IMG/VR virus record: IMGVR_UViG_3300044623_000381
Location: 1-52,155 of that record
DNA: 52,155 nucleotides
From: a virus
Lineage: Duplodnaviria; Caudoviricetes
Direction: 5' to 3' (one strand)
A model generated the notes under the pieces. That model saw nothing but the letters and a program-made list of their open reading frames with translations, was not told where the DNA came from and did not search any database. Both the position numbers and the translations under genes were made by a program. Below, piece by piece: positions 14,013-42,800 of this stretch; the first letter of the stretch is position 1; the number at the start of each line of letters is the position of its first letter.

Positions 14013-14040
14013 AGGGGCCTATTGTGCCCCTTTGACGTTT
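14013..14040 (+). terminator. probable intrinsic terminator
   Basis: AGGGGC-7nt-GCCCCT followed by a T-rich tail; the next promoter TACCTTTG is at 14043-14050. Confidence 0.5.
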
Positions 14041-14057
14041 TGTACCTTTGCAATCGT

Positions 14058-17000
14058 ATGGCAGCAAATCAAGTAGACTTTAAGATCCTTCCGAGCGATC
14101 AATTTAGCGTATATAGTCCCCAGACCCGAAGCGACAAGGTAATCACCTATTTTACTTTGCTGTCTAAACTTCGTGGAGACATCCTATCCGTTGGGCAAGA
14201 CGACGACCCAAACGATATTGTCTCGGCGTTCTACAGCAGCGTAGGGGGAACTCAGACCCTCCACCTTGTAAAGGCGGATGGGTCAGAGATTACGGCATCC
14301 GTCCCAGAGCCCACCGTAGGAACGGTTACCTCTGTCGACCTAACTGCTAGCACAGGAATCAGCGTTAGTGGGGGACCTATCACCACTAGTGGAAGTATTA
14401 CCGTAACCAACACAGCACCCGATCAGGTGGTAGTGTTGACTGGTGCTGGGACAACCTCCATCAGCGGAACCTACCCAAGCTTTACCATCACAAGTAACGA
14501 CCAGTATGTAGGTACTGTAACATCTGTTGGCCTTACGATGCCAGCGGCTTTCTCTGTTGCAAATAGCCCAGTAACTACTAGTGGAACCTTAGCGGTCACT
14601 GCAATTGGCTTAAGCTCTCAGTACATCAGGGGCGATGGCCAGCTAGCTAACTTCCCGACCCCTGGGGGTGGAGGCTCTAGCGTTAACTACTACCTAAATG
14701 GATCGGTAAACCAAGGTACGTTTGGTGGTGTCATCTACTATGAGTTAAGCAAGACACCAATCGCTGGAGCTGGAACGAATTTTACGAGGACTAGCGCTTC
14801 AGGAAATGGATACGTAGCTTCATTTATAACTGACGCTAACGACCCAGACCAGATAAACATACCTGGTGGAAACTTCAACCTAGAGTTCTACTTTAACTCG
14901 TCATCAAACGGTGGTTCGCCTGCGTTCTACGGAGAGTTGTACAAGGTAAGCACATCAAATGTGTTTACGTTAATTGCTAGCGGATCAGCCAACTCAGAAG
15001 TCATCACTGGAGGCACTTCTGTTGACCAGTACTACACCTCGATAGCTGTACCTCAGACTGCGTTACTTTCCACCGATAGGCTTGCTATTCGTGTGTATGT
15101 TATAGTAGACGGAAGAAACATCACGCTCCACACTGAGAATAGTAACTTCTCTGAGGTGATCACTACGTTCTCTACTGGCCTTAACTCACTTAACGGGCTT
15201 AGCGATCAGGTTCAGTACTTTGCTGTTGGTACTAGCGGAACTGATTTCGCGATAAGTTCTTCTGTAGACACCCATACGTTTAACTTGCCAACGGCTAGCG
15301 CCACCAACAGGGGCGCTCTGTCGTCTGCGGACTGGAGCACTTTTAGTGGCAAGCAGAATGCTTTAACGCTAACGACCACAGGAACCACTGGCGCAGCCAC
15401 CTTAATTGGAGCTACGCTAAACATTCCAAACTACGCAGACCAGTTTGTAGGGACGGTAACTAGTGTAGACCTCACGGCTGGAACGGGAATAACCGTAAGC
15501 GGTGGTCCGATAACCTCAAGCGGGTCTATCACCGTAAACAACAGCGACAGAGGCTCATCGCAAAATATCTTCAAGAACATTGCTGTTGCTGGTCAGTCTA
15601 CTATTGTGGCTGACCTAAATGATGATACTCTTACTATTGTTGCGGGAACAGGAGTTACAATCACCACTAATGACACTACGGATACTCTAACGATATCTGC
15701 AGCTGGAAGTGGGGGTACGATCACAGGAACTGGTACTACGAACTATGTTTCTAAGTTTACAAGTTCAAGCGCTATTGGTAACTCTGCTATCTATGATAAC
15801 GCGGGCAACATCGGCATCGGGACGACGTCGCCTGGAACTAAATTAGATGTAGTAGGAAATGCTAGAATGGGTGCGAATACATCACAGCAAGCTTTTGCAG
15901 CATTACAAGTATCAGCCGGGGAGGGAACAACTACTACATACAGAGATATAGATTTACACGGTTTTTGGGCTGCAGGTGAAGGTCACGCTATAACAGCAAA
16001 TTACGGAACAACAACATCTGATATCGTAGGACAAATTGTATTCCAGCACGATAATCCTGGTTCTAAAATTAAGTTTGGAAGATTGTATGATTCTGGAAAT
16101 CAATCTACATATCCAATGGAGTTAGTTAGCGATGGTGGAAGCGCTAACTTAACAATAACGGGTAAAGTCGGAATTGGGACTACGAATCCAACTTCTAAAT
16201 TATACATAGAAGGTGGTTCAGCTAACTGGAACGAAACCACGCCTGGTCTTTCTGTTGGTACCATCCATCTAGATCCTGGAGTAAGTACAAACGATTTCGG
16301 TAATGCTATAACATTTGGAGCTAGTGATGCGTCTAGTGGAACAGATGCTCAGGCTGGGATATATGTTCGTAGTGATGGAGCCTACGGTACAAAAATGTAC
16401 TTTGCTACAACAGATGCTTATGTTACTGGAAGTAAGACAAGGATGTATATATCCGAAGCTGGAAGCGTCGGTATTGGTAACACTGCACCATCTCAGATAC
16501 TCCACGTCACTGGAAACCTCCGAGTAACGGGAGCGTACTACGACTCCGGAAACTCAGCAGGTACATCAGGTCAGATATTGTCTTCGACCGCAACGGGTAC
16601 TTCTTGGATTGCAGCACCTAGTGGTAGTATAAGTGGTAGTGGTACTACGAACTATGTGCCTAAGTTCACAGGTGCAAGTGCTATTGGTGACTCTGCCATA
16701 TATGATAACTCGGGTAAAATCGGCATTGGTACGACCGCGGCTAGCGCTAAGTTTCAGGTTGTATCTGGAATTCAGTCAAATACGGTTTCCGTAGCTAATT
16801 CAGCAGCATATATATATGGGATAGATGTCGGTTTAGCTATTGGGCAAGACAATGGCGCTGGAGGATATGGAACTTGGGTTCAGTCTACTCGATTATCAGA
16901 TGGAGTATCGTTTAGTATGGCTTTAAATCCCAATGGAGGCAATGTCGGTATTGGTACGATAGCTCCACAGGCATTGTTGCACGTATCTGGAACAGTTTCT

Positions 17001-18371
17001 TATGGTAGCGCTAGATTTAGCCCAACATCCGCTGACGGTGAATCAGCTATAGCCTTTTATGCTGACGTAGCAGGAACTAGTACAAGTACATCTTGGGTAG
17101 TTGGTCAGGCTGGGTGGGGACACACTGGAGACTTTGTTATTGGTAATGAAAATGGTGGGGCTGGCGGCAATGTAAGACTCCTAATAGAGCGCTCCGGCAA
17201 CGTCGGAATTGGGACGACGGGTCCAGCATCTAAGCTTCACGTTCAAGATGGAGATATAAGGATATACAATAGCACTTCCGCAAATCCGACTATATACTTT
17301 GGCAACTATAACGTAAGTACAGCATATCCACAGGTATCCATTGTTCAATCAGACGCTGGGTCTTATGGTGGGAACCTTGAGTTCTACACTAAGCCAAATG
17401 GAGGGCCAACAAATGCATTGATATTTGCAATGAATATTACCCACCAACAAAGAGTTGGCATTGGGACGACGGCACCATCGTTTAAGACAACTATATCTGC
17501 AGACATCACAAAAGATGGTGATCTAAGCCCTGGGACTGCACAATTGTCTCTTGAGGGAATAACCACTCCTGGAAAAAGAATGATTCTAGGGTATGATACT
17601 AATAGTAATGGTTTTGGTTTCATTAAGGCTGGAAACTTTGGGGTAACGTGGACAACATTATCGCTTCAGCCAGATGGTGGCAACGTCGGCATTGGGACGA
17701 CGAGTCCTGCTGCTAAACTACACGTTGCTGGCACTCAATACATATCTGGTGATTTAAGAATAGGTTCGTCATTTGGAGCTACAAATCAAACAAGTATATT
17801 TAAGGACCAAGGGTCCGCTGGTCTTGGTATTTTTACGTGGGGAGATACGGCTCCAGTTGTTATTGGTGGAGGTCACGTAATAATACGGTCTGAATCCGGT
17901 GCGAACAGAAATCTTTATGTTACTGGCAACGTCGGCATTGGGACGACGGGGCCATCCTACAAGCTAGACGTTGTTGGAGACGCTCGCATCACCTCGGGCT
18001 CATTAGGCGTGGGGGTTGCCCCCAACGCCACCGACGGACGTATCGACGCATCCAACGACATCGTAGCATTCCAGACCTCAGATAGGAGGCTAAAGGAAAA
18101 CATCACCCCCATCACTAACGCACTTGAAAAGGTTCGTTCTCTAACAGGTGTAATGTTCGACTGGAAGGAAGAGACCAAGTCTGTCCACGGATACGAAGGA
18201 CACGACGTAGGTATCATCGCCCAAGACGTGCAGGCAGTACTCCCAGAAGCTGTCCGTACCAACGACACAGGATACCTATCGGTACGCTACGAGAAGATGA
18301 TTGCACTACTGATTGAAGCAAACAAAGAACTCGCTACTCGTGTTGAAGAACTAGAATCTAAATTAAAATGA
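14058..18371 (+). CDS. long tail fibre with a C-terminal intramolecular chaperone (peptidase S74) domain
   Basis: GTVTSV and GNVGIGTT.P repeats; SDRRLKENI...GIIAQDV...VRYEKMIALLIEA. Start moved to ATG 14058, after the promoter. Confidence 0.85.
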   Translation: MAANQVDFKILPSDQFSVYSPQTRSDKVITYFTLLSKLRGDILSVGQDDDPNDIVSAFYSSVGGTQTLHLVKADGSEITASVPEPTVGTVTSVDLTASTGISVSGGPITTSGSITVTNTAPDQVVVLTGAGTTSISGTYPSFTITSNDQYVGTVTSVGLTMPAAFSVANSPVTTSGTLAVTAIGLSSQYIRGDGQLANFPTPGGGGSSVNYYLNGSVNQGTFGGVIYYELSKTPIAGAGTNFTRTSASGNGYVASFITDANDPDQINIPGGNFNLEFYFNSSSNGGSPAFYGELYKVSTSNVFTLIASGSANSEVITGGTSVDQYYTSIAVPQTALLSTDRLAIRVYVIVDGRNITLHTENSNFSEVITTFSTGLNSLNGLSDQVQYFAVGTSGTDFAISSSVDTHTFNLPTASATNRGALSSADWSTFSGKQNALTLTTTGTTGAATLIGATLNIPNYADQFVGTVTSVDLTAGTGITVSGGPITSSGSITVNNSDRGSSQNIFKNIAVAGQSTIVADLNDDTLTIVAGTGVTITTNDTTDTLTISAAGSGGTITGTGTTNYVSKFTSSSAIGNSAIYDNAGNIGIGTTSPGTKLDVVGNARMGANTSQQAFAALQVSAGEGTTTTYRDIDLHGFWAAGEGHAITANYGTTTSDIVGQIVFQHDNPGSKIKFGRLYDSGNQSTYPMELVSDGGSANLTITGKVGIGTTNPTSKLYIEGGSANWNETTPGLSVGTIHLDPGVSTNDFGNAITFGASDASSGTDAQAGIYVRSDGAYGTKMYFATTDAYVTGSKTRMYISEAGSVGIGNTAPSQILHVTGNLRVTGAYYDSGNSAGTSGQILSSTATGTSWIAAPSGSISGSGTTNYVPKFTGASAIGDSAIYDNSGKIGIGTTAASAKFQVVSGIQSNTVSVANSAAYIYGIDVGLAIGQDNGAGGYGTWVQSTRLSDGVSFSMALNPNGGNVGIGTIAPQALLHVSGTVSYGSARFSPTSADGESAIAFYADVAGTSTSTSWVVGQAGWGHTGDFVIGNENGGAGGNVRLLIERSGNVGIGTTGPASKLHVQDGDIRIYNSTSANPTIYFGNYNVSTAYPQVSIVQSDAGSYGGNLEFYTKPNGGPTNALIFAMNITHQQRVGIGTTAPSFKTTISADITKDGDLSPGTAQLSLEGITTPGKRMILGYDTNSNGFGFIKAGNFGVTWTTLSLQPDGGNVGIGTTSPAAKLHVAGTQYISGDLRIGSSFGATNQTSIFKDQGSAGLGIFTWGDTAPVVIGGGHVIIRSESGANRNLYVTGNVGIGTTGPSYKLDVVGDARITSGSLGVGVAPNATDGRIDASNDIVAFQTSDRRLKENITPITNALEKVRSLTGVMFDWKEETKSVHGYEGHDVGIIAQDVQAVLPEAVRTNDTGYLSVRYEKMIALLIEANKELATRVEELESKLK

Positions 18372-23315: not shown

Positions 23316-24734
23316 ATGGCAACTACAAATACCCCGTTGGATTTTTCTCCCAACAGTTTTCGTCGGTTAGACCCGACCAAATACACTTCACTCGGTGATT
23401 TCATCGATGAAGTAAACAAGCCCGACAACCGTGATCTTCTCGTTAAGACCTACGGTAACCAAGGCATCACAGGCTTCCTTCAGATGGTAGGAGCTGTCAA
23501 ATCTAACGGTGCTGCCGATGAGGTTCAGTACTGGGAGGAGACTCGCTTGCACCAGCTTCAGGTTGCTACCCTTTCTGCTACTGCTGCAACTGGAGCTACT
23601 ACCCTGACCCTTAACCTTGCATCTGCTGCTGCTACTGCAACTGGATCTACCAAGGCTGCTGCTCAGAAGTATCTTCGCGTTAACGACGTGATTTTGGTTG
23701 GTGGTGTAGACCGCTTCATCATCACTGCTGTTTCTTCTGGCGAATACTCTCAGACAGCTACTGCTGCCGCTACTGCTGTTGCTCTTACCTCTGGCGGCTT
23801 AAGTGCTACAGCCGCTACTGCTGCTGCTAACTACCCCATCGTTGGTAATATGTTTGCTCAGGGAACTGATCAAAACACTGGATACCTAGAATCAAACGTT
23901 GTTAAGCGTACGAACCCATACCAGATCATCAAAGAGGTCTACAAGGTTACCGGTTCACAGGCTACCAACATTGGCTGGGTAAACCTAGGAAATGGCGACT
24001 ACCGCTGGTTCATCAAGTCTGAGAACGACACCCGTCAACGCTTCCTCGACAAGCGTGAGATGATGATGTTGCTTGGACAGCAAGTTACCAACACATCAGC
24101 TACTGGTCTTGGTTCTATTGCTGGATCTGAAGGTTACTTCTCTGCTATCGCTGATCGTGGTGTTGTTGTTAACTCTGGTGCAACCACTACTGCTGCTATC
24201 GCTACGCTTGACGAGCTTGATGTTCTCATCACCGCTCTTGACAAGCAAGGCTCTATGCCTGAGTACGCTATGTACGTTAACCGCCTCCAAGACCTTGCCA
24301 TTGACGATATGATCGCTCAGGGTACGTCTACGGCTGCTAACATCACCGCTGGTGTTACTACTCAGTTCGGACAGTTTGCTAACGCTGCAGATATGGTGAA
24401 GCTTGGCTTCTCTTCATTTATGCGTGGCTCTTACACCTTCCACAAGCACAGCTGGAAGCTCCTCAACGATCCTACGTTGTTGGGCGCTAGCAACTTCCAA
24501 GGTGTTATGATTCCGTTGACCAACGTTGCTGATCCTCGCACTGGAGAGAAGTCTCCAGCTCTTGAGCTCAACTACAAGGCCACGAATGGTTACAACCGCG
24601 AAATGGAGCACTGGATGACAGGTTCTATTCTTGGAGTTACCAATAGCAACACGGACGCTTTGCAGTTTAACTACCGCTCAGAGTTCGCACTAGTTACTCG
24701 CGCTGCTAACCAGCACGTGCTTTTGACTAAGTAA
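23316..24734 (+). CDS. major capsid protein
   Basis: 472 aa; strongly biased high-expression codons (GCT/ACT); follows the scaffold gene and is followed by a strong terminator. Confidence 0.8.
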   Translation: MATTNTPLDFSPNSFRRLDPTKYTSLGDFIDEVNKPDNRDLLVKTYGNQGITGFLQMVGAVKSNGAADEVQYWEETRLHQLQVATLSATAATGATTLTLNLASAAATATGSTKAAAQKYLRVNDVILVGGVDRFIITAVSSGEYSQTATAAATAVALTSGGLSATAATAAANYPIVGNMFAQGTDQNTGYLESNVVKRTNPYQIIKEVYKVTGSQATNIGWVNLGNGDYRWFIKSENDTRQRFLDKREMMMLLGQQVTNTSATGLGSIAGSEGYFSAIADRGVVVNSGATTTAAIATLDELDVLITALDKQGSMPEYAMYVNRLQDLAIDDMIAQGTSTAANITAGVTTQFGQFANAADMVKLGFSSFMRGSYTFHKHSWKLLNDPTLLGASNFQGVMIPLTNVADPRTGEKSPALELNYKATNGYNREMEHWMTGSILGVTNSNTDALQFNYRSEFALVTRAANQHVLLTK

Positions 24735-24754
24735 TCAACAGCTTTGTTGATAGG

Positions 24755-24778
24755 AAGGGGGCTTAGGCCCCCTTTTTT
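24755..24778 (+). terminator. intrinsic terminator after the capsid gene
   Basis: AAGGGGGC-TTAG-GCCCCCTT followed by TTTT. Confidence 0.85.
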
Positions 24779-24846
24779 ATTGCCAAATTTTCGCTTTGCA
24801 TAGAAGTGTAATTTTGCATAATTATTAATTATAATTCTATTTAACT

Positions 24847-25605
24847 ATGGCACGTCCAGCACGAGCGTCTGCAGCTCCTAAAGCAGAAGAAAGAAAGGGA
24901 AAGATTTTCTCCATCCCCAGTGGTGGCGGAATAATTTCCACAGTAAAGTCAGAGGCAATCATCTACGATCCCGAGACTAATACCAACAGACAGATACGTT
25001 ACTGCCCCAACGAGTCTTCTATCTTTGCCGACGAGCAGAGCAGCCTAGCTGTTCGCCGTCACGTTATCTTCGAGGGTGGGCTACTCTACGCTCCTGCTAA
25101 CCAGCCTAACCTGCTTAAATTCCTAGATCTTCACCCCGCCAACCGCGCAAACGGTGGCGGCTTGTTCGAGGAGGTAAACACCGAAAATAACGCAGAGGTT
25201 GATATCAACGTAGAGTTCCTTCTCCACGATGCCATCGGCCTGATTCGTAGCAAGTCCGTAGACGAGCTTATTCCTGTCGCTATATGGTTAGGTATCGACA
25301 CTGGCCAGAAGAACGCTGAGATCAAGCGTGAGCTACTCCTAGAGGCTAAGGGGAACCCTAAGCGCTTCATTGATCTATTCGATAACCCAACAGTTACCAC
25401 CAGGGCCAACGTTAAGAAAGCTGTTGACTTCCAGATGCTGCTTGCCCGTGAGGACGGTATGTACTGGTTCGACAGCAACCGCTTGATTGTCGCTACTCCA
25501 GTGGGTCAGGACACCGTAAGTGTTATGACTCAGTTCTGTATGACTGAGAAGGGCGGAACAGCTTACGAAACTTTAAAGACAGAGTTGCAAAAGTTGGAGC
25601 AATAG
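24847..25605 (+). CDS. hypothetical protein downstream of the capsid gene
   Basis: Own promoter TAATTTTG at 24809-24816; clean 252-aa ORF. Confidence 0.7.
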   Translation: MARPARASAAPKAEERKGKIFSIPSGGGIISTVKSEAIIYDPETNTNRQIRYCPNESSIFADEQSSLAVRRHVIFEGGLLYAPANQPNLLKFLDLHPANRANGGGLFEEVNTENNAEVDINVEFLLHDAIGLIRSKSVDELIPVAIWLGIDTGQKNAEIKRELLLEAKGNPKRFIDLFDNPTVTTRANVKKAVDFQMLLAREDGMYWFDSNRLIVATPVGQDTVSVMTQFCMTEKGGTAYETLKTELQKLEQ

Positions 25606-25620
25606 CGTATATTTGCACCC

Positions 25621-25694
25621 TACACTGAACCTCGTTTCATAGGTTAATTGTTGATTGGTTGGAAAGGGCTCTAGAAATGGAGCCCTTTTCTTTT
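25621..25694 (+). ncRNA. candidate ~70-nt small RNA with an anti-start-codon loop
   Basis: Promoter TTG (25585)-20 nt-TATATTTG (25608-25615); no ORF; hairpin AACCT-CGTTTCAT-AGGTT; terminator at 25663-25694. Confidence 0.55.
25663..25694 (+). terminator. intrinsic terminator with a GAAA tetraloop
   Basis: AAAGGGCTCTA-GAAA-TGGAGCCCTTT followed by TCTTTT; next promoter TACTTTTG at 25699-25706. Confidence 0.85.
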
Positions 25695-25728
25695 GTTGTA
25701 CTTTTGTATGAACTACAGATATTAAGAT

Positions 25729-26442
25729 ATGGCATCAGTAAACCGCGTATATTCAGCCCTGAAAGATCTGGTCAACAAGGACCAGCGTGGCTTTGTTACG
25801 CCTGCTGTTTTCAATAACTTCGCTCAGGTGGCGCAGATGAACTTGTTTAACAAGTTATTTAGCGATGCTGCACTCGATAAGAGACTACGTCAGGCGCAGC
25901 TTGATGCAGGAAGAGACAAGTCAAGGGTAAAGCAAAGCAACGAAGACCTCTCGTACTTCTCTAAGAAGTCAACCATCAGTTTAACCACTGGGGTTGGCGC
26001 AAAGCCAACCGACCTTGCAAGGATTATCTCTATACTATCCACCGACTCACCAGCGAAGAGCCTTGCGCTTATCTACGACGAGGAGAAGCTAGAGTACATC
26101 CTAAGGTCTACCCTCAGTGCCCCTACAACGGCGTTTCCTGCTGCTATGGTGGGAGACAGCGTATATGTGTACCCAACTAGTATAGCAAGCGTTATTATGC
26201 GCTACTACAAGACCCCACAGGGTCTTGTTCCGTCCACTGGCGCACGCACCACGGCATCGCCTAAGTTTGGCTATACTGTTGTCGCAGGAAAAGAGGTTTA
26301 TGATGCCACCAACAGCGTTGACTTCGAGCTACCAGAACACTACTTCGCGGAGTTAGTTGTCGAGGTTGCAAAGCTTATAGGGGTCAACCTACGCGACACT
26401 GACGTTTACACTTACGCTAAACAAGAAACTCAACAGCAATAA
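25729..26442 (+). CDS. tail tubular/ring protein
   Basis: NKDQRGFVTPAVFN and FELPEHYFAELV motifs; position after the capsid module. Confidence 0.7.
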   Translation: MASVNRVYSALKDLVNKDQRGFVTPAVFNNFAQVAQMNLFNKLFSDAALDKRLRQAQLDAGRDKSRVKQSNEDLSYFSKKSTISLTTGVGAKPTDLARIISILSTDSPAKSLALIYDEEKLEYILRSTLSAPTTAFPAAMVGDSVYVYPTSIASVIMRYYKTPQGLVPSTGARTTASPKFGYTVVAGKEVYDATNSVDFELPEHYFAELVVEVAKLIGVNLRDTDVYTYAKQETQQQ

Positions 26443-27185
26443 TGGCACAGGATACCGTATCACTTGAGCAGGTCATTACGGACTTCGTCATATCGATGGA
26501 GAGTGATGACTATGCAAATACCGCCTCAGACACCCTTATTCGCAACCTAGCGCTAAGAGGTATCAGAGAGATGGGATTCGACATCCTGAAGCGCCTAAAG
26601 GCCACTGAGCTCAACATAGACTTAAGCACCAACACAGTGACGTTGCCAAACGATTATGTTGACTTAGTAAAAATTGGAATAGTAGGATCAGATGGACTTG
26701 TATATATATTCGGAGAGAACAAAAACAAAAACATACTCGCTAACCAGCAGCCATATCAGATTCCTGATTACCTGCTTGGCTTTGACGACTTTATTTACCG
26801 CAACTATGTGTACGCCACAACCAATGGCCGCTTATACGGCTATGGTGGTGGCCACTACAGCGGAGAGTACCGAATAAACACAGAGCAGAACAGGATAGAG
26901 CTAACCACTGGCACTAGTGTAGACACCGTTTACCTAGAGTACATTGCAGACGAGGCTCGTGCAGCGAGCCCCACCATCCACATCTACGCAGAGCAGGCCC
27001 TGAGGGCGTACATCTACAACCATCTCATCGAGCGCAAGAGTAATGTCCCATTAGGAGAGAAGGCTCGTGCGCGTCAGGAGTACTACACCGAGCGCCGTCT
27101 AGCAAACTCACGACTAAAGTCATTCTCTAAGGATGAAGCACTGAAGACGATTCGCAAGAATTTCAAGCAATCTCCTAAGTACTAG
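26442..27185 (+). CDS. second tail ring/adaptor protein
   Basis: LPNDYV..KIG and VYLEYIAD motifs; TAATG coupling. Confidence 0.65.
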   Translation: MAQDTVSLEQVITDFVISMESDDYANTASDTLIRNLALRGIREMGFDILKRLKATELNIDLSTNTVTLPNDYVDLVKIGIVGSDGLVYIFGENKNKNILANQQPYQIPDYLLGFDDFIYRNYVYATTNGRLYGYGGGHYSGEYRINTEQNRIELTTGTSVDTVYLEYIADEARAASPTIHIYAEQALRAYIYNHLIERKSNVPLGEKARARQEYYTERRLANSRLKSFSKDEALKTIRKNFKQSPKY

Positions 27186-27191
27186 TAACTT

Positions 27192-30100
27192 ATGATTGAA
27201 AAACTCATACCGCGATACCTTAACAAGGACGATGATGCCCGCCTAATTAAAAGCATAGAGATGACAGACGCACTTAATGTGCGTGTCTCGTCTGAGGAGA
27301 ATGGCGATGGAGGTGTTGTCAAGAACGCTTTTGGTAACTCAGCTGTTGTATTTCGCTCTGGTAACAACTGGCAGGGATTACCTCACGCCCTACCCGCTCC
27401 AACAAATAAAGTTGTAGGTTCCGTAAGCGACCTAAAGAATGGAGTAATCATATACTTTTTGTATAACAGCAATGGTGATCATTCAATCTATAGGTTTACC
27501 ACTTCACAAAATAATGTAGAGCTAGTCTACCGCGACAGCGTGCTGGCCTTCCAGTCTGACAGCTTCGTAAAGGGAGATGTGATCAATAACCTCTATAACG
27601 AGGTTCTTCTTTACTTCACCGATGGTATAACTCCACCAAAGAAGATTAACGTAACCAGAGCGATTATAGGGGGCTATTCAGAGGTCATCACCAACGGGAC
27701 AGACGAGCAGAAGCTAGAGTTCATTACGTTGGCTAAGAAGCCACCTCTAGACCCACCCACCTACGAGTTCTTTACCGATACAACTGTTGACGATAACAAC
27801 ATCTACGAGGATAATTTTCAGTTTGCCTATCAATATGTTTATCTAGACGGTGAGTACTCAGCGTTGTCTAAGTATACCGACCTAGCTGTTGCTCAGAACC
27901 AGTACCTAGACGGCTTTATTGAAGAGGATCAGAAAAATGAGTATAACGCTATACGTATCTCAGTAGAGTCTTCAATAGCCGATGTAAAGACTATTAAAGT
28001 ATTAGGGCGCAGAGGAAATACTGGTCCTTGGTTTATTGCGGGCGAGATTTCAAATCCCGCCCTTGCAAGTCCAGCTACATTATATATTGAATTTAGGAAT
28101 GATAAACTATATAGGTTTATTTCCCAAGATGATGCGAACAAGATTTATGATGCTGTTCCGCTTACCGCTCAGTCTCAGACCATTTCAGGTTCAAGATTGT
28201 TCTTGGGCAACTACACCGAAGGATACCCAAATCTTCGAATTGATTCAGCAATAATTCCAAACTACGAGAAGGAGGCTCAGGTAATTAATATACCTGTAGA
28301 AACCATTGGCCAGACTGTGACTCCAAACTTTATGGGTCCAGTAAAAGAAATACGTGCAGATATTTCATCTATCCCCGCAGGAGGTGTAACCGCTGATAGT
28401 ATATTAATCATTGATTTCTCTATTGATTTAGGTCGTGTGGAGCTATATGCTCCGGGATACTTTTTTAATTTTGTATCACTAAACGAAAACTTATTAAAAG
28501 TTTACGGCGGTGCCCTTATAGAAAGTTTCGTATACACATCTGCGTTTCCCGTATCGATATACAAAAAGCAATTCGTTCCTGCGGGTACATCGTACAACGA
28601 CATCATTGTATTGATTCAAGCGGAGATAGAGGACAGATACGCTATACTCTTTGGAACAGACACCACAAATCTAGGTCTTGCTAGTCGATTTAGCGCTGCC
28701 GTTGTTCCCAATAATGCTGGGCGTCAAGATCAAAAGTTCTTTAATAACTATGGATTTTTTACTGGATCAGGAACACTAGAGATTGACTCAACTGGCGTAA
28801 GTGGTAATTATGCAAACTTTGTGTTAAGCATACGAGATACTACAATGAGTATGCAGTTCTTGTGTGGTGCTGTCAGCAGCAATCCAAACATCCAAGACTC
28901 TATAAACATTTTTGAAACAGATAACGTAGTTTATAATGGCGATGACAATCAATACACTAAATATCTTGGCATCCTTGATATTATTTCAACAACCGTTGTA
29001 CAGCCAGAGCCTAATAGCACTACTGGAGTTTTTTCATCCAACAGCAAATTTTCTTCTGTCTTAACATCTTCTTCGTTTCTTTCTAGCTTTATCGAGGGAG
29101 TAAAACAATTTAAATCTGGCGCGTCTCACGAGCTTGGGATTGTATTTTATGACGATCGAGGTCGTTCATCAGGCGTTCAGACGCTAAGCAGTCCATATGT
29201 AGAGTGGTATTCTGATAGGCAATATAAGGGGGCTGTATCTATTGTAATGCGAATTAAAAGCCAAGGACCATCTTGGGCTAGAAAGTGGGCGCCTGTATAC
29301 GCCAAGCGTGGGTCCATAGATAGGTTTATCCAGTATTCTGTTATTGATGGATTCATTGCCTCAAATCCAGACGCTGATATTTCCACAATATACTCAAATC
29401 AAAATTCAATTTACCTTTCAATGAGATCTTTGGAGGGCAAAGACAGCTCCTACATAAATGGTAAAGATGCAAACCTTTCATATGAATATACGGACGGAGA
29501 CAAACTAAGGGTAGTTTCATATATTGACGACTCTACAATTACGTTAACAATATCATCAGTAGTAGGCAACATAGAAGTTGGAGACGTATTGCTTGGATTT
29601 GGTCTACAGGGATTTTTTTTCTTTACTATTACTAGTATAAACCTTGTCGGTGGGGTAGGAACTATTCAGGGAACATCAACCCTACCGATTGGCTCAATGC
29701 CTTCTGCTTCTGCAATTTTTAATCCAGATCCAACTAATAGCGTTCAAGTTAACTACACCGCAATATCTGAATCAGAGCAAAAAATATATCCATCAATATC
29801 ATATTTCAATGTATTGGGCTATAGTAATTTTACCGATGACCCAGACACAAACCCAGTATTAAATAGGTCCAATGACGATACTATTTTCAATAGCACTGGG
29901 CAGTTCTTGGTTTTAGAGAACAATGATGGCGCTATTGGATTTAATGCCCAGTCAATTGCTCAAGGTACATCTGTATGGGGTAATAGGTGTATCGTTGAAA
30001 TTTATCGCACAAGAAAAGAGCAATCCGAAGAAGTTTACTACGAAATAGGCGAATCATATAATGTCACAAATGGTTTTCTTTCTAGCGATAGAAATATTGT

Positions 30101-32309
30101 TTCACAAATTGCCGCACTTTGCACCAATGAAAGGCCGCTTCAATTTAGAACTAACATCATACTTTATGCGGGAGACATCATATCAGATGTCTCTGGAAAT
30201 TCAGCGCTTGTCACAAACGTTTTTGAAAGTGTTTCTGCTCCATATAATTATTTTGTAGACTGCACGCTTAGCACCGGATCCTTTACCTCAACCCAAACAT
30301 ACACATTTAATCTATTAAACAGCAGCGATGCTGTTATTCAGTTAACGCAGGGTGACACTTATTTTCGAATTCGTCAACTTAGGTACGGAAGCCAAGCAAA
30401 GTCATTTAATTATTTTGTAGATTATGTTGAGTCGGATACCGTAAGTGATTTTTACGAATCTAAAAACACATCTATTGGTCGTCCGTTTGCTGTACTTCCA
30501 GACGCAAAGACAATCTACAGGACTGGCTCCGTAACCTATTCTGATCCATTTATTGTTGATGTAACAAGGCTTGGGCTGTCTTCGTTTAATCCATCCCTAG
30601 CGCCTTTCTACGACCTCAACTATATCCACGGATCAATCCGATATATGGTCAACAGAGACGACAGCATAGTATTCTTGCAAGACAAGAAGTGTGGCCTGTT
30701 ACCAGTGGGACGTAACTTAATTGAGTACGTAAGCGGACAGCAAGGCGTTACCGTATCCACAAACGTTGTTGGAACACCAAGCTACTACGTAGGTGACTTT
30801 GGAGTTGGAAACAATCCAGAGTCTGTTGCCGTTGAAGGTGGACGTGTTTACTTTGCTGACATACGCAACGGAAAGGTGATGCGCATCTCACAAGATGGGC
30901 TCACCGCAATCAGTGAGACCAAGATGGACTCATTCTTTAAGGGCAACTTTAGGGATATAGTCCAGTTTGCTTCAGTAAAACGAGTAGTTGGAGGCGTTGA
31001 CGACGAGGCAGGCGAATATATTATCGCTAGCGATAGTATCTGCACATCAACAATTGCCATAACAGCAGATGGAGTTGACATAACGGCAGCGTTTGAACAG
31101 CGCTGCATAGGTGACGGTGGAACCTTTGAGGGCACAATATGCTTTGATGCTGCAATAGAAGTCCTTCTTGGCTCGTTTAGCTTCACACTGCAAACAAATT
31201 GTGCAGGCTCTGTTGTATTTGCCGAAATAGAGTACAACGACGACAAACTTCCTCAGTTTAATACAGAGGTTCGTGAGTTTCAAGATATATGCGATACGTT
31301 TGACAACAGCGTAAATGCTGTTGTTTTTTTAGACAGACTTACTGCTGGGCAGGCAATCATTGTTGGAGAAGAGTTTCAGGGCACCAACAGCACCATCTAC
31401 GGTATTGCGACCAACTCTACGTATGATTTCTTTGTCGGTATATCTATAGACCTTTCTGCTGGAACGTTTACCTTTATAAACACCTGCGGAAACTACAATG
31501 GAGCAATATCTAATGTTGGCACTACAGACACAGGTTTCACCGTAGCCTACGATACCGAAGACAAGGTGTGGAACACTAGGTACTCCTACTCACCAGAGAG
31601 GATTGCTACTCTAGACGATACGCTCTACACATTTAAGGCAGGGACGATGTACGTCCACGACGATACATCCAACAGGTCTACATACTACGGCGTTGCGGGA
31701 GGTACTATTGTGGAGGTGATAAGCAACAACAACCCATCTATGGTTAAGTCCTACGAGTCGTTAAGCCTTGAGGGCACTGATGCTTGGGCTACTGTAATCA
31801 CAAACACAGATCAGTCTACGTCAATCCTTACTACCGACTTCAGCGAGAGAGAGCGTGAGTTCTTTGCCTACGTTCCAAGAGACACTAGCGCAAACGTTGG
31901 AACTAGCACCATCACCTCGCTAAGCGGAAGCTCTGAGGTTTTTGTTCTCGGAAACGTAGCCACAAGTGGAGTTTCCGGGTCAACCATTACGTTCACCACT
32001 CCTGTGGGAGATGTGCCATTCCCTTTCGGAGGCACACTCTACAAGGTTAGCGGTTCGACCCTTGTAACCCTTGGGGTAACTGTTACTGCAATCAGCGCTA
32101 ACAAGCAGATTACTGCAAGTGGCGCTATAGCTGGCGTAAGTGACGGAAACACAATAGTGGTCCTTGCTAACGCTGGAGTCGAGGGAGACCAACTGCGAGA
32201 CTACTACGCACGCATCAACCTAACAAACACCGATACATCTGAAATTGAATTGTATGCCGTCAATGCAGTGTTCGCCCAAAGTAATCTACACAACCAACAG
32301 GGACAATAA
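27192..32309 (+). CDS. tail stabilisation (nozzle/muzzle-like) protein
   Basis: LNKDDDARL..DALNVRV N-terminus; FKSG..H.LGIVFYDDRGR; GVGNNPES; crAss-like gene order. Confidence 0.75.
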   Translation: MIEKLIPRYLNKDDDARLIKSIEMTDALNVRVSSEENGDGGVVKNAFGNSAVVFRSGNNWQGLPHALPAPTNKVVGSVSDLKNGVIIYFLYNSNGDHSIYRFTTSQNNVELVYRDSVLAFQSDSFVKGDVINNLYNEVLLYFTDGITPPKKINVTRAIIGGYSEVITNGTDEQKLEFITLAKKPPLDPPTYEFFTDTTVDDNNIYEDNFQFAYQYVYLDGEYSALSKYTDLAVAQNQYLDGFIEEDQKNEYNAIRISVESSIADVKTIKVLGRRGNTGPWFIAGEISNPALASPATLYIEFRNDKLYRFISQDDANKIYDAVPLTAQSQTISGSRLFLGNYTEGYPNLRIDSAIIPNYEKEAQVINIPVETIGQTVTPNFMGPVKEIRADISSIPAGGVTADSILIIDFSIDLGRVELYAPGYFFNFVSLNENLLKVYGGALIESFVYTSAFPVSIYKKQFVPAGTSYNDIIVLIQAEIEDRYAILFGTDTTNLGLASRFSAAVVPNNAGRQDQKFFNNYGFFTGSGTLEIDSTGVSGNYANFVLSIRDTTMSMQFLCGAVSSNPNIQDSINIFETDNVVYNGDDNQYTKYLGILDIISTTVVQPEPNSTTGVFSSNSKFSSVLTSSSFLSSFIEGVKQFKSGASHELGIVFYDDRGRSSGVQTLSSPYVEWYSDRQYKGAVSIVMRIKSQGPSWARKWAPVYAKRGSIDRFIQYSVIDGFIASNPDADISTIYSNQNSIYLSMRSLEGKDSSYINGKDANLSYEYTDGDKLRVVSYIDDSTITLTISSVVGNIEVGDVLLGFGLQGFFFFTITSINLVGGVGTIQGTSTLPIGSMPSASAIFNPDPTNSVQVNYTAISESEQKIYPSISYFNVLGYSNFTDDPDTNPVLNRSNDDTIFNSTGQFLVLENNDGAIGFNAQSIAQGTSVWGNRCIVEIYRTRKEQSEEVYYEIGESYNVTNGFLSSDRNIVSQIAALCTNERPLQFRTNIILYAGDIISDVSGNSALVTNVFESVSAPYNYFVDCTLSTGSFTSTQTYTFNLLNSSDAVIQLTQGDTYFRIRQLRYGSQAKSFNYFVDYVESDTVSDFYESKNTSIGRPFAVLPDAKTIYRTGSVTYSDPFIVDVTRLGLSSFNPSLAPFYDLNYIHGSIRYMVNRDDSIVFLQDKKCGLLPVGRNLIEYVSGQQGVTVSTNVVGTPSYYVGDFGVGNNPESVAVEGGRVYFADIRNGKVMRISQDGLTAISETKMDSFFKGNFRDIVQFASVKRVVGGVDDEAGEYIIASDSICTSTIAITADGVDITAAFEQRCIGDGGTFEGTICFDAAIEVLLGSFSFTLQTNCAGSVVFAEIEYNDDKLPQFNTEVREFQDICDTFDNSVNAVVFLDRLTAGQAIIVGEEFQGTNSTIYGIATNSTYDFFVGISIDLSAGTFTFINTCGNYNGAISNVGTTDTGFTVAYDTEDKVWNTRYSYSPERIATLDDTLYTFKAGTMYVHDDTSNRSTYYGVAGGTIVEVISNNNPSMVKSYESLSLEGTDAWATVITNTDQSTSILTTDFSEREREFFAYVPRDTSANVGTSTITSLSGSSEVFVLGNVATSGVSGSTITFTTPVGDVPFPFGGTLYKVSGSTLVTLGVTVTAISANKQITASGAIAGVSDGNTIVVLANAGVEGDQLRDYYARINLTNTDTSEIELYAVNAVFAQSNLHNQQGQ

Positions 32310-32325
32310 TTAGTACCTTTGCAAT

Positions 32326-33297
32326 ATGCGATCAAAGAAGAGTAAAGAACCAAAAAAATATATAGCGGGAGGACTTGTTCTAGCTGGAGCATTAGGCGCA
32401 GCGCAAACAGGACTTGGTGCATACCAAATGATTCAAGGACAGCAGGCTGCTAAACGAATTAAGGAGGCTTCAACAGCTCGTCCTTCTGAATACGCAGAGA
32501 TGCTAAAGCAGGCTCGTAATGCGGAGCTAGAGCAAAGACGCCTTGAGGAACTTAACCGCTCTATAGCTACAGGAATCGCTGCTGCCCAAGGGGCTGGTGG
32601 TCGTGCTGTTGTCGGAGCGTTGCCAGGTATGATTCGTGCGTCAGATGCTGGCGCCTTGGATATCTTAGGTCAGCGTCAGGCTCAGACTATGCAGGCCCTT
32701 GGCTTTGCGGCGCAGGGCTCTGAGCGAGAGATTGGACGTAAGATAAATCGTGAAATGATGGAGCGTCAAGCTGCTCAGGCCGCCATTGAGGGCGGCCTCC
32801 AGAACATCGCAGGTGGTGTAGGTCAGATTGGATCTGCAGGTGTATATGGCGCTCAATTGGCGTCTAAAAAGCCCGCTAAAGCTGGTGCTGAATCAGTACT
32901 TAGTGCAGAAGATATAGCTAGAACTGAAACCGTTGCCTCTTTAAGAGGAGCGGAAGGCGAACGTGCTGTTCTTGCTCAAGGATTTGACAATATGCAAGAG
33001 GAGGAGATGTTTCCGTTGATTCCAGAATCAGCAGAAAGTAGAGCCGCTAAGATATTAGGACTTACAGAATATCCAGACATCTTAAAAGATCGCTCGTTTT
33101 ACAAAAAAGACGGAGGTATGGTAACAGGCGGTAAGTTTGACCATAAGACCAACCCAATCGACATCGTAAAGAAAGGTCAGAAGATTGGCGAGATGACAGG
33201 CGGAGAGGTTATCCTAAACCCAGCCCAACAGCAAAAGCTCAGCAAAGAAAGTGCTTACTTTCGTCAGCTGTTAAAGAAATTCAATAAGCAAAAGTAA
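32326..33297 (+). CDS. internal virion/ejection protein 1
   Basis: A/G/Q-rich helical protein with a hydrophobic N-terminal segment; DGGMV...H...GEMTGGEVILN; promoter TACCTTTG at 32314-32321. Confidence 0.6.
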   Translation: MRSKKSKEPKKYIAGGLVLAGALGAAQTGLGAYQMIQGQQAAKRIKEASTARPSEYAEMLKQARNAELEQRRLEELNRSIATGIAAAQGAGGRAVVGALPGMIRASDAGALDILGQRQAQTMQALGFAAQGSEREIGRKINREMMERQAAQAAIEGGLQNIAGGVGQIGSAGVYGAQLASKKPAKAGAESVLSAEDIARTETVASLRGAEGERAVLAQGFDNMQEEEMFPLIPESAESRAAKILGLTEYPDILKDRSFYKKDGGMVTGGKFDHKTNPIDIVKKGQKIGEMTGGEVILNPAQQQKLSKESAYFRQLLKKFNKQK

Positions 33298-34709
33298 TGG
33301 CTAAACTTATCCCAAGTGGCGTAATTCAGCTGCCAAACTTTGCGGAGCTTCAGTACAATCTCAATGAGCGTGAGCGCCAGAAGCAGCTTCAGTTCGACGA
33401 TTGGTCATCTCAGTTTACGAAGAAGTCAGGAACATATCTTGATGGAGATAGAGAGGCTGTTCAGACAGCCTATGGCGCGGTAGAGAACTCACTTAAAGAG
33501 CTTGCTAGGGACCCAGATAATATAGACCTACGACGTAAGGTTCGTGAGGCTAATGCTGGATACAACGAGATAGCAGGAACAGCACAATATCTTGCAGACA
33601 ACTACCGACAGCAGTGGTCTGCATACAATACCAAGCCAGATCAGTTTGACTTGGGTGGGAGAAATGCTTCGGAATTATTTGATGCCGAGCGTACCACTAA
33701 ACGTGACGCAAATCAAATTATGTCGCTTGCTGCCAATCCTTTTACCTTGCTTCCAAGGTATAACTATGATATGCAGAGCCCTAATCAGATTGCTGATGAA
33801 ATGGCTTCAACGTTTGAACGCAATAAGAATGATTACATCAAGCGTGACGGAACTATTGATCAAGAAAAAGCTGGAAAGTGGGCAGCGGAATATCTTCTTG
33901 CCCGAAACATTGACCCGGCACAGTTAAAAAATGCCGTTGTATTTGAGGGGGTGTCTCAAGGTAAGCTTGGACGTAACGGTCAAATCACAAGCAGAGCAGA
34001 CCTAGACATCATTGATTCAGAAGGATTTGCTCCTCTAAAAGAAGGATTAGTTGCAGACTACAACAACAAAGCCATTAATGCTTTCTTAAAGAAAATTCCT
34101 GAGCGTGGAATTTCAGCGTACGATAAGGCTGTCAATGATCAGAAGATTGCAATTGAAATCGCTAAGCTTAATCAAAAGGCAACTGAAAATCAGCGTAAAA
34201 ATAAGTATTTTGGAATTGAGCCAGCTGCTTACGTTCAGCGAGTAGGAGAGAACATTTTATCTACTGGATATATGATTCCCATTCGAACTGCCAAAATCCC
34301 AACAGTTGGTGGTGAAATCTCAGCATTTGGAAAACTTAATGGAAAGCCAAGTATAATCGTTGAGGTTAGAGAGAAAAGAATAGGTGCTGATGGAGTAGAA
34401 TTCGTGGCCGTAAGAGAGGTTGGTAGAGAAGCAAAACCAAGCGATCTTTCAACACTAAGAAAAGCCACTGAAGGATTGTCAGATAGCTATTTTAATGCCC
34501 TACCATCATCACAGATTAAACCTCGCGCTACTGCAATGCAGTCTGCAGCGTCTGGAAGACTTGATATAAATGGAGCTTCCGAAGCTCTAGGTCTACAAGA
34601 GACACAGGCGCCACAAGGTGGAGAGGTTTGGTCTTCTGAAATGTTTGGAGAAAGTCAATTCTCTAAACCTAGAATACCTACCATCCCAGGCATCACCATT
34701 ATCGACTAG
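33297..34709 (+). CDS. internal virion/ejection protein 2
   Basis: TAATG coupling; helical; lies between the other two ejection genes. Confidence 0.55.
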   Translation: MAKLIPSGVIQLPNFAELQYNLNERERQKQLQFDDWSSQFTKKSGTYLDGDREAVQTAYGAVENSLKELARDPDNIDLRRKVREANAGYNEIAGTAQYLADNYRQQWSAYNTKPDQFDLGGRNASELFDAERTTKRDANQIMSLAANPFTLLPRYNYDMQSPNQIADEMASTFERNKNDYIKRDGTIDQEKAGKWAAEYLLARNIDPAQLKNAVVFEGVSQGKLGRNGQITSRADLDIIDSEGFAPLKEGLVADYNNKAINAFLKKIPERGISAYDKAVNDQKIAIEIAKLNQKATENQRKNKYFGIEPAAYVQRVGENILSTGYMIPIRTAKIPTVGGEISAFGKLNGKPSIIVEVREKRIGADGVEFVAVREVGREAKPSDLSTLRKATEGLSDSYFNALPSSQIKPRATAMQSAASGRLDINGASEALGLQETQAPQGGEVWSSEMFGESQFSKPRIPTIPGITIID

Positions 34710-34732
34710 AAGTAATTAGTATCTTTGTCATA

Positions 34733-37700
34733 ATGAACGAAGAGCTACAATCTTTAATCGATCGCGCAATGGCCGCAGGTCGTAGTCCCGGGCAAATTAT
34801 TTCAGCCTTAAAGCAGAATGGTCTTGACGATGGCGGAATAATGTCTGCAGATTCCTATATTAAAAAAAAAAGTCCAAGCGATTTAAAGGGATCAAGTTCT
34901 CTATCGGATCTACGACCATCTGTATCGGAATCATTAGGTAGCGAGCGAGTACAGATAGGCTTTGATGAAGCTGCTATACAGCAGAAGAAAAAGGCTATCT
35001 CAGATGATGCTGCCGCACAGGTATACACTGCTGTAGTTAAGACTAAAGGTGACCTAAACAAGATTGAAGACAAGCAGGCTTTTGCCAATGCCTACACCAC
35101 ATATCGCTCTATGTCCGACGACCCTATGGTGTCGTCGCTTCCTCAGAATCCAGTAGCTCAAAATGGGCAGATAGACTTTGCTGTTGTCCCTGCATTGAAG
35201 AAGGGTGCCACTGAATACATCAACGACTTAATCAAGCAAGAAGAGGCTCGAAAAGCCAAGCTTGGAGAGAAGATTACAGTACCGATATTAAGCGAAGCAG
35301 CAGCTGGTGCAAATGCGCTTATTGGTGGTGTCTTAAAGTTCAATGAAATGATTACTGGAAGGGACAGCGAGCTTGCTGATTTCTTTCTAAATGATGCATC
35401 AACTAGAGGTCGTGATGCTCTTATTGATTATGGCCTTACCGAAGAAGACATTAGTAAGGGTCTTATTGGCAATATATCAGAAGGGAATATAGGTACTGGT
35501 TTAGCTATATTTGGCTCTACTTTGGTTCAACAGTTACCTCAGCTTGCTGCTGTTGCTCTGACTGGTGGTGCTGGACTTCCACTGCTCGCTGCATCTGCAG
35601 CTGGTAGCGGTTATGCCTCATTCGAAGATCGATCTGATTTAAGCGAAGGAGAGAAAGTGCTTTACGGCATTGGTGTTGGAGCTGCTGAATATTTAGCAGA
35701 ACGGTTATTTCTTGGTGACATAAACGCAATCCGAAAGGCGCTTGGCAAAGAAGGTATAGAGGGCCTTACTAAAAAAGAGCTGGGCGATGTGATGTTTGGC
35801 GCACTACCTAAAGGAGTGCGTGGAGTAATGGAAGAAGGAACAGAAGAACTTCTTACCAGTGTAGCCCAGCAGACTCTCGGAAAGATTATTGCAGGCGAGG
35901 AGTTTAACCCTATTGAGATTGCAGAAAGTGCAATCTATGGTGGAACTCTTGGTGGCAGCATTTATTTATTGAGTCGTGGCAGTGGTGCTATTGTAGATCC
36001 AGAAAATGAAGCTAAGATTCAGGACTTAAAAAAAGATCTGAATAAAACACAACAGGCAAAAAGCCGACCAGACATTGCCGAGGAAGAAAGAGAAATACTG
36101 TCTAGAAAAGAACAAGAGACTCGTCAGGCGATTAATGATTTTAAAGCGAAGGATGATGATTTAGTTGCTCGTATGAGCGAAGAAGATCGCGTGGCGCTAA
36201 AGAGTATTCAAGACGAAATTAGTTCAATCAGAAGAAAAAATACTATTGTAAAGACAGAAGAGGGTAAACAGCAACTCAAAAAAGAGTCTCTTGCCGCCAT
36301 TCAAAAGTTAAACAATCTAAAGACTAAATATGATACTCAAGAAGAAGCAGGGATACCAAGTCCTATCGTCGAAGGGGAAGCCCCTATCGAAGTCCAACCT
36401 ATCGAAGGAGCAAGCCAAGAAACGCCTCAAGCAGGTGGAGTTTTTCAAGTACCTGTCGAAGAAGGGGCTGAAGCCACAGCCCAAACAGAAGTAATAGCCC
36501 CAATACAGGCAACAGTATTTGCTGCTCCGTTCTACGACACTAAAGTCAATAACATTCAGGAGGCTAGGGCTATTCGTCAGAGCGAGCCATACATTAATAA
36601 TCTAGACACAGTACGTAATGCGTCTGCATTATTTAACCTAGAGATTGAGAACATAGACGAATCCATTGGAGGATTCGTTAACGAAGCTGGAGATAAAATT
36701 GTAGAGATATCAAATATCATTAGAGTCAAGGGAACTCCCGAAGACGTACAGAACTACGCCGCGTTTCTAGCCACTTCATCGCCAGAAACTCAGGAGGCAA
36801 CTATTGCCGCTACTTATGTCGAGCCCGACAGTGAAACCCACAACATTGATGAGTTAACTATCAGTGTATCAGATGTTGACGGAGCCATTGAAGCGCTCAA
36901 GGAAAACGATATTTACGACTTTACAATCAACGACTCCAACAACACCATTACATTTTTAGATTTTTCTAAGGGTGCTGATGGTGATTTTATGGATAATGTT
37001 GGTAAATTTGCTAAATCTTTAGAACGAAAAAACATTAGTTATGAAAAAAGAGACATCCGAGCCATCGACTCAAAATATATCGGACCGAGAGAAAGGGAGG
37101 GAATTTTTAGCGGGATTCAAGAAACTCTCGTACAACAGGGACAGACTGGGACAGAGCTTTATAAGCAAGTCGAACAAGCGATAGCTAGAAACCAAGAGTT
37201 TCTAGCTAAGACGTCAGCCCCAATATCTGAGGCTATAGTAGCTGAAGAGATTACTGAACAAGCTGTAGAACAAGAGCCTATAAAGAATAAGAAAGGCTTA
37301 AGCAGTGAGCAGGTAAATGAAGCTGTATCTGGTGCTGAAAGACTAGCTAAACGGCTAGGTCTTCCTACTAAGATAATAGTACACAACAGCAGAAAGGAAT
37401 TTAATGACGCTATGGACGAGGTGTCTAAGAGCGGATCTGTTGACGCTGGTGTTGAGTCGGGTAGGTTTATCCCGTCTGCTAATGAGATACACCTGAACCT
37501 CGAGGATATGACCTCAGAGGTTCCTTTCCACGAGGTGTTCCACGCAGCCTTTGTAAACAGGTTTGGCAAGAGAGGACAAAAGGTTCGTGAGAAAGTAGCT
37601 ACCGACTTTTACAATGGCATCGTTAGGATTCTACGTAGCGGAAGCGAGCAGGATCAATTGCTTGCTGATGCTGTTGAATCATTCACTAGGTCTGGGTACT

Positions 37701-42630: not shown

Positions 42631-42770
42631 TGGCTAAAACCAAAGCACAAACAGCATCAACCTTTAAAGCAAAGCCAAAGGTCTCAAGGCCTGGCGTACA
42701 TTCCAAGACCAAGAGCAGTAAGCTCAAGACCTCTAAGCTGTACTCCAAGTCCTATCGTGGGCAGGGTTAA
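42630..42770 (+). CDS. 46-aa basic protein ending YRGQG
   Basis: TAATG coupling; RPGVHSK...K.YRGQG pattern of small phage proteins. Confidence 0.6.
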   Translation: MAKTKAQTASTFKAKPKVSRPGVHSKTKSSKLKTSKLYSKSYRGQG

Positions 42771-42800
42771 AGAAAAAGACCCGTCTTACGAAGGCAGGCC
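42768..42800 (-). terminator. probable terminator of the nrdA transcript
   Basis: On the - strand: GGCCTGCCTT-CGT-AAGACGGGTC followed by TTTTCTTT. Confidence 0.55.

Follow-up and report, generated by a model that had tools for sequence, protein, structure and literature searches.

Why should a host-type promoter box stand 2 nucleotides (nt) behind the stop codon of a phage gene, when what follows it is a terminator and no open reading frame (ORF)? The question arises in IMG/VR virus record IMGVR_UViG_3300044623_000381, a linear contig of 52,155 bp (completeness estimate 86%), the whole of which was analysed and is called the window here; it is recognisable as a phage by its PHROGs for virion proteins, its ribonucleotide reductase genes and a muzzle-protein domain of the Crassvirus type, and is treated here as one of freshwater Bacteroidota. 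The element in question lies within the 123 nt that separate two + strand genes of the structural module (24847-25605 and 25729-26442). A sequence-only reading had taken it for a stand-alone small RNA of about 70 nt that presents an anti-AUG loop and silences translation initiation. We found the element to be a conserved module of defined anatomy, covered by RNA that is contiguous with the upstream + strand gene and complementary to start regions of relatives in excess of shuffled controls. These observations point, tentatively, to a functional + strand anti-leader regulatory RNA of about 75 nt.

Anatomy and conservation of the module

The upstream gene and the parts of the element follow one another along the + strand.

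24847-25605, +: upstream gene in the capsid module (252 amino acids (aa), phrog_34748, no known function), with its stop codon TAG at 25603-25605; its mRNA bears the element as 3' untranslated region (UTR)
25585-25587, +: TTG, a possible -33 element of promoter P1, within the upstream coding sequence and separated from the -7 box by a 20-nt spacer
25608-25615, +: P1 box TATATTTG, a Bacteroidota -7 box (TAnnTTTG), 2 nt past the stop codon
25628-25645, +: 5' hairpin AACCT-CGTTTCAT-AGGTT (as RNA, AACCU-CGUUUCAU-AGGUU), predicted in minimum free energy and centroid folds, with arms AACCT at 25628-25632 and AGGTT at 25641-25645
25635-25642, +: UUUCAUAG block, the most conserved part of the body and the complement of CU-AUG-AAA
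25643-25662, +: C-free G/U tract GTTAATTGTTGATTGGTTGG (as RNA, GUUAAUUGUUGAUUGGUUGG), the proposed seed
25661-25694, +: intrinsic terminator, with a stem-loop at 25661-25690 (13 pairs, 6 of them G-C), a GAAA loop and a T/U run
25699-25706, +: P2 box TACTTTTG, the next gene's promoter box, 22 nt ahead of the ATG at 25729

Every sequence statement of the earlier reading proved accurate (the stop codon, TTG with its 20-nt spacer, the hairpin, the G/T tract, the GAAA-loop terminator and P2), as did its claim of about 40 nt free of reading frames, with no ATG-started + strand ORF at 25616-25660. The terminator stem-loop ranked first in the list of terminator-like structures from a scan of 20-32 kb, and in the predicted fold of the window RNA the CAU of the anti-AUG loop is unpaired with a probability of 0.90. 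The complement of the G/U tract fits a leader consensus, TTAACCAAT..AACAATTA.

Compared with a sigma-A (sigma-ABfr type) promoter, P1 has the -7 box TAnnTTTG and, at -33, only TTG at a 20-nt spacer; most gene-proximal -7 boxes of this phage likewise lack a strict -33 TTTG. The -7 motif itself (TANNTTTG, TAnnTTTG) has 61 copies in the window compared with 36.75 +/- 5.71 in shuffled sequence, and none of 100 shuffles reached 61. Thirteen copies lie at most 45 nt upstream of a same-strand gene start, often directly behind the previous stop codon; the box at 25608 is the only such intergenic copy with no ORF following it, and otherwise resembles these junction promoters. Separately, TAnnTTTG boxes within 1474-1492, 1955-1973, 32314-32328, 34720-34735 and 50076-50088 (the last on the - strand) stand right behind the previous stop with only 4-5 nt to the start codon, and with this spacing the mRNAs of the genes behind them would be leaderless or almost so.

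Relatives of the upstream protein were found at 26 viral and 80 metagenome loci, of which 99 were examined and yielded 53 distinct intergenic sequences; the lineages are related, and the counts given here are of sequences, not of independent events. Of the 53, 42 have a P1-like box no more than 20 nt from the stop codon (32 TATATTTG, 7 TATATTTA and 3 TATCTTTA), which lies exactly 2 nt past the stop in 37 of these, and the P1-bearing intergenics retained TTTCATAG in 33 cases and CAT in 40. Across 30 aligned representatives TTTCATA was at least 90% conserved and the terminator formed the other conserved block, while the 5' part between conserved blocks was not alignable across lineages. The remaining 11 intergenics, from interspersed lineages, contained only a short tract and the terminator, followed by the next gene's promoter. 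A P2 box (TACTTTTG or TATCTTTG) was present between the terminator and the next gene in all P1-bearing lineages with that gene in view. One clade-B lineage (L005, 3860-4000; also L395) has an extra gene after the terminator at the usual P2 site, beginning MKEHKKSCSKCK as read by eye.

Per-lineage folds gave a 5' hairpin in every lineage, with stems that differ between them (CAGG/CCUG, GGGG/CCCC, CCUC/GAGG, AUCCC/GGGAU and UUCC/GGAA). Among 20 representatives the + strand fold was stabler than that of the reverse complement in 19 (means -7.87 vs -4.29 kcal/mol), and 46 of the 214 pairs in the + strand folds were G-U; the bias arises in part because G/U-rich RNA forms wobble pairs that its complement cannot. 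In the terminator, compensatory changes were seen in three pairs. RNAalifold, applied to 12 and to 17 sequences, recovered the terminator only, because the 5' hairpins are out of register between lineages. Mimicry of a CAU-tRNA anticodon loop, considered for the 7-nt loop UUCAUAG of clade C, was dropped, as loop size and register vary by lineage.

To gauge recurrence at other loci, IMG/VR was searched with a two-motif pattern (TATATTTG, 6-36 nt, TTTCATAG), the fixed motifs of which report recurrence rather than the true extent of the family. Among the matches listed, a strict terminator lay at most 90 nt behind the pattern in 12 of 113 distinct matches, compared with 1 of 117 for a control in which the second motif was reversed (Fisher p 0.0011), and a three-motif pattern gave, again among the matches listed, about ten independent lineages with a terminator as judged by eye. 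At 9 of 15 inspected loci the module begins 1-37 nt past the end of a + strand ORF (8 distinct contexts, L071 and L117 being near-identical), and three of those nine ORFs are homologues of the upstream gene of the window (21-32% identity). All seven genomes bearing the module have one copy each. The unit is conserved, non-coding, structured on the + strand and built like a Bacteroidota trans-acting small RNA (sRNA), which supports part of the earlier reading. In L042 (2012-2095) and about 40 related contigs, which belong to an abundant phage lineage, a promoter-TTTCATAG-TTGATT-terminator module lies antisense within an operon of the other strand, just upstream of the conserved gene start MNLREKV.

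RNA contigs and complementarity to start regions

Part of the stretch is contained in 23 RNA runs, and four freshwater metatranscriptomes, possibly from one campaign, were compared (X1-X4) as Logan contigs, which show contiguity and not strand, transcript ends or level. Contigs running from the upstream gene through the element were obtained in three of the four runs (24840-27200 in X1, 24868-25665 in X2 and 24859-25713 in X3); the X4 contig stops at 25580, short of the element, and is uninformative either way. For the capsid, upstream and downstream genes, in that order, contig depths were 1210, 408 and 36 in X2 and 183, 42 and 7 in X3, a 6- to 11-fold fall at the terminator (408 to 36 and 42 to 7), and new contigs open just past P2 at 25721 (X2) and 25728 (X3), with one X1 contig bridging the terminator. 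That these are separate contigs with very different depths argues against carry-over of DNA and in favour of RNA. Both the terminator and P2 thus act as expected from their sequence, and RNA covers the element in continuity with the upstream + strand gene, at least as its 3' UTR. The description of the RNA as stand-alone is unsupported by these data, the contigs joining the element to the upstream gene's transcript, an outcome (a 3' UTR) that the sequence-only reading had itself named as refuting.

For the anti-leader test, each cognate seed was scored against the start region of every ORF of 50 aa or more in near-complete relatives, with shuffled seeds as controls. The numbers of start regions with predicted pairing at -21 kcal/mol or lower were as follows for three of these genomes.

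G001: 7 start regions, shuffle mean 1.2, reached by 0 of 50 shuffles
G002: 15 start regions, shuffle mean 2.5, reached by 0 of 50 shuffles
G005: 12 start regions, shuffle mean 1.8, reached by 0 of 50 shuffles

The summed energy of the five best targets was also reached by none of 50 shuffles in G001, G002 and G005, and by one of 50 in G003, so that the proposed complementarity to replication-arm starts extends beyond composition in these phages. The best-scoring predicted targets are clustered small genes on the opposite strand, together with an Erf-like annealing protein and nrdB; these genes have the common leader TTAACCAAT..AACAATTAGAAACT-ATG-AAA, and the element, when reverse-complemented, aligns within this early-gene leader family, close to its consensus. 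As a control, the 3' UTRs of relatives without P1 showed no excess (scores reached by 48/50 and 32/50 shuffles in G008, and by 40/50 and 20/50 in G013). In the distant relative G018 the module lies behind a different gene (a 3757-aa ORF), many start regions were matched and the top-five sum was reached by 0 of 40 shuffles. The relative G001 is 94-97% identical to the window and has 10.3 kb (34319-44646) that are absent from it and fall between the contig's two ends; this segment contains about 20 small early ORFs with the common leader.

Inside the window the element relates to the following gene starts.

45966-46012, -: nrdB start region, the best predicted target in the window (RNAduplex -22.0 kcal/mol, first of 42 start regions)
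729-736, +: CUAUGAAA at the start of the HNH endonuclease gene (ATG 731), complementary to the element's 8-mer
1485-1492, +: CUAUGAAA at the start of the endolysin gene, 5 nt past a TATATTTG box
1966-1973, +: CUAUGAAA at the start of a 135-aa gene, 5 nt past a TATCTTTG box

The gene starting at 45975-46000 on the - strand encodes the ribonucleotide reductase small subunit (Pfam PF00268, E 5e-57), and the + strand there resembles the element as the sequence-only reading had quoted it; the match it had reported at the 1968 gene (ACCT-ATGAAA) is likewise present. Of 300 shuffled seeds, 2.3% do as well as the nrdB pairing on any start region of the window. CTATGAAA occurs at 3 of the 42 gene starts compared with about 0.95 expected from separate frequencies, which is suggestive only. 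A fourth copy at 5948-5955, in frame within ORF 5833-6411, may mark the true or an alternative start of that ORF. Upstream of nrdB (45978-46046, - strand) lies a near-promoter box, TATCTTCG, followed by a hairpin and T run that are conserved in relatives; the nrdB leader thus seems to contain a terminator-like hairpin.

A proposed regulatory RNA and its rivals

A functional + strand anti-leader regulatory RNA of about 75 nt is the simplest account of the P1 box, the re-made 5' hairpin, UUUCAUAG, the C-free G/U stretch and the terminator combined, and we give it close to an even chance of being correct. Such an RNA would arise by one or both of two routes, transcription from the host-type promoter P1 (25608-25615), were this active, and trimming of the upstream capsid-module mRNA in its 3' UTR, and would end at the intrinsic terminator (25661-25694). 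As a discrete molecule it would have three parts, namely the 5' hairpin, a largely single-stranded stretch (UUUCAUAG and the C-free G/U tract) and the terminator hairpin, the single-stranded stretch being the antisense image of the early or replication-arm leader TTAACCAAT..AACAATTAGAAACT-AUG-AAA. In vivo, the RNA would be expected to pair across the unstructured A/C-rich leader and the AUG, on which initiation without a Shine-Dalgarno (SD) sequence depends in Bacteroidota, and the seed's G and U would permit wobble pairing with leader variants. Repression would take the form of blocked ribosome loading on many early mRNAs simultaneously, presumably timed to the period when the structural genes are on.

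Several results weigh against this interpretation. The strict -33/-7 pattern (TTTG-N17-23-TANNTTTG) has two matches in the window and none at P1, where the -7 box is accompanied by a TTG inside the upstream coding sequence, and 10 of the 42 P1 boxes in homologous intergenics end in A instead of the consensus G. Its exposed anti-AUG loop was predicted in the window and in 12 of 20 representative relatives, but CAU is buried in a predicted stem in 5 of the 20, and the excess stability of the + strand is partly an effect of composition. The RNA contigs suit a plain 3' UTR equally well, a separate RNA of about 75 nt, its 5' end and its strand being invisible in contigs. Excess complementarity, for its part, could merely restate an inverted copy of the leader cassette at the locus. 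No excess over shuffles was found for the degenerate variant E (AAUAG, in the lineage-E record G004, which CheckV rates 100% complete) or in G017 and G011, and the sole sequence to score in G016 was the reverse complement of the module itself. The nrdB pairing, although first among the window's start regions, is clade-specific: the fraction of shuffles reaching it was 0.002 in clade A and 0.07-0.28 in clades B and C, where cognate pairs do no better than shuffles, and nrdB was rejected as a conserved target. B-type RNAs pair better with the nrdB leader of clade A than with that of their own clade, three near-complete relatives (G004, G008 and G014) lack nrdB, and G013 has nrdB and similar leaders yet no module. 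In the window alone the excess is weak (the best score was reached by 5/50 shuffles and the top-five sum by 2/50), because the small-gene cluster lies in the 10.3 kb missing from the contig.

The main rival is a plain 3' UTR with its terminator, in which the body would be an inert relic of an inverted leader cassette and the TATATTTG box vestigial or inactive. This fits the RNA contigs, which link the element to the upstream gene and end at the terminator, and the 11 of 53 distinct intergenics that lack the P1, hairpin and CAUAG part while keeping the short tract and terminator; a reverse complement close to the leader consensus is likewise what an inverted duplication would leave. Such a remnant would be expected to decay, yet the P1 box, its 2-nt position (37/42) and TTTCATAG (33/42) persist, the intervening sequence has been replaced with hairpins rebuilt on new stems, and the module stands at another genomic place in G018, all of which makes this account rather unlikely in our judgement. 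Function could also reside on the - strand, where the element would serve as leader cassette, as micro-ORF or as a start signal of early type that points back into the capsid genes. Read on that strand, the locus runs hairpin, A/C-rich leader and ATG-AAA like the early genes, and a longer ORF opens at that ATG in G016 and the L042 family. Every gene at 653-42630 is on the + strand, however, the hairpins depend on G-U pairs that are not formed on the - strand, and the T run trails the hairpin on the + strand. Moreover, the - strand ORFs run to 2-38 codons in most loci and are not conserved, the frame of the L065 subfamily closing after 17 codons in a by-eye translation. The micro-ORF encoding MKRGSV, which the sequence-only reading had named as an outcome that would count against it, was rejected, the peptides differing beyond MK in both sequence and length, and we regard a - strand role as very improbable.

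Two further explanations accept a + strand RNA and assign it other work. A promoter-proximal terminated transcript, acting as an attenuator or antitermination leader (like the 6S RNA of lambda PR'-tR') or as a promoter-terminator insulator, would explain the order of promoter, short transcript, strong terminator and further late genes, as well as the X1 contig that spans the terminator; the separate P2 (TACTTTTG or TATCTTTG) found in all P1-bearing lineages for which the next gene could be seen speaks against it, and the antisense relation of the body to early leaders is left unexplained, so that only a slender chance attaches to it. Alternatively, the U/G tract and UUUCAUAG might form a site for a nuclease or an RNA recognition motif (RRM)-type protein similar to RbpB, serving as a sponge or stability element. 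The sequence of UUUCAUAG is kept in predicted loops and predicted stems alike, and the RRM protein RbpB of Bacteroides binds single-stranded parts of similarly built sRNAs (PMC11697453). Protein binding does not predict excess complementarity to the phage's own start regions, and the binding protein is purely hypothetical here; we consider this explanation improbable.

Extending the anti-leader RNA to Bacteroidota phages of this broad group, as a dedicated late-made RNA that combines a wobble-degenerate G/U seed with an anti-AUG block, recognises the SD-less leader common to a set of early and replication genes and silences them jointly in an early-to-late switch, and as an autonomous promoter-seed-terminator cassette moving between lineages, is doubtful at present. 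Regulatory RNAs of Bacteroidota are only starting to be described. Were the interpretation true, a single RNA would let the phage silence a class of its own genes by exploiting how its host phylum initiates translation, without SD sequences and dependent on the leader, and metagenomes could be searched for such RNAs by the succession of promoter box, UUUCAUAG, C-free U/G tract and terminator. Should the element prove only a 3' UTR relic, a conserved promoter box 2 nt past a stop codon would still be in need of explanation.

Genome context and known systems

A distant blastn search of GenBank phages with 24000-27200 gave no match. Elsewhere in the window, the replication arm carries a UDP-galactopyranose mutase gene (GLF, E 3e-72; 46454-47533, - strand), an auxiliary sugar-metabolism gene. 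Among the large proteins, the 1705-aa product of 27192-32309 has the Crassvirus muzzle-protein domain at its N-terminus, the 1449-aa product of 14022-18371 has a C-terminal Peptidase_S74 chaperone domain typical of tail fibres, and the 2495-aa product of 34733-42220 gave no Pfam match. Positions 1-650, possibly a regulatory region or a genome end, contain G+C-rich inverted repeats and lack ORFs of 80 aa or more. The first gene, 653-1468, is an HNH endonuclease by PHROGs; its start is more likely the ATG at 731 than that at 653, because an A/C-rich leader and, at a distance of 22 nt, TATATTTG precede the former and neither precedes the latter.

No Rfam family reached its cut-off anywhere in the window, and sub-threshold matches were mostly to the terminator. 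The best, FopS (RF04319, BTncRNA_FopS), scored 21.9 bits compared with a cut-off of 56 (E 0.1; 17.8 bits in other scans), too low for membership; the alignment spans only model positions 25-71 (the 3' half) and not the FopS seed at 1-21, the local similarity being AGGUUAAU..GAUU and the terminator. A literature search for phage-encoded sRNAs in Bacteroidota or crAss-like phages gave no description of one among the papers listed.

In design, the closest counterparts are the FopS/GibS RNAs of Bacteroides thetaiotaomicron, which prevent initiation on SD-less mRNAs by pairing beside the start codon, and which share the promoter-seed-terminator arrangement of the element (PMC11697453). FopS RNAs measure 65-70 nt, have a seed that is single-stranded between a canonical promoter and a terminator, and are present in 12-15 copies per Bacteroides genome; one FopS/GibS member derives from a 3' UTR, and a FopS-like sequence is mentioned for one gut phage (PMC11697453). 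The element differs in having a 5' hairpin ahead of the seed, in occurring as one copy per phage genome and not as a multicopy family, and in being found in freshwater and marine phage contigs, where its predicted targets are phage early genes and not susC.

In its position the element recalls sRNAs of the MicL and DapZ type, which lie in a 3' UTR, have their own promoter at or inside the gene's end and use a terminator in common with the mRNA. It too forms the 3' end of a protein-coding transcript, whose terminator it uses. Unlike them it belongs to another phylum, without Hfq, its promoter is known from motif alone, and there is no homology (18.8 bits with the DapZ model compared with a cut-off of 56). 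In its proposed action it resembles c4 of P1 and P7, CI RNA of P4 and OOP of lambda, short phage RNAs that pair at or near the ribosome-binding sites of their own phage's genes, with c4 and CI acting on repeated target sites. Those RNAs belong to temperate enterobacterial phages and have SD-containing targets close to their own locus, whereas the element lies in the structural module and its proposed targets are dispersed SD-less leaders on the opposite arm.

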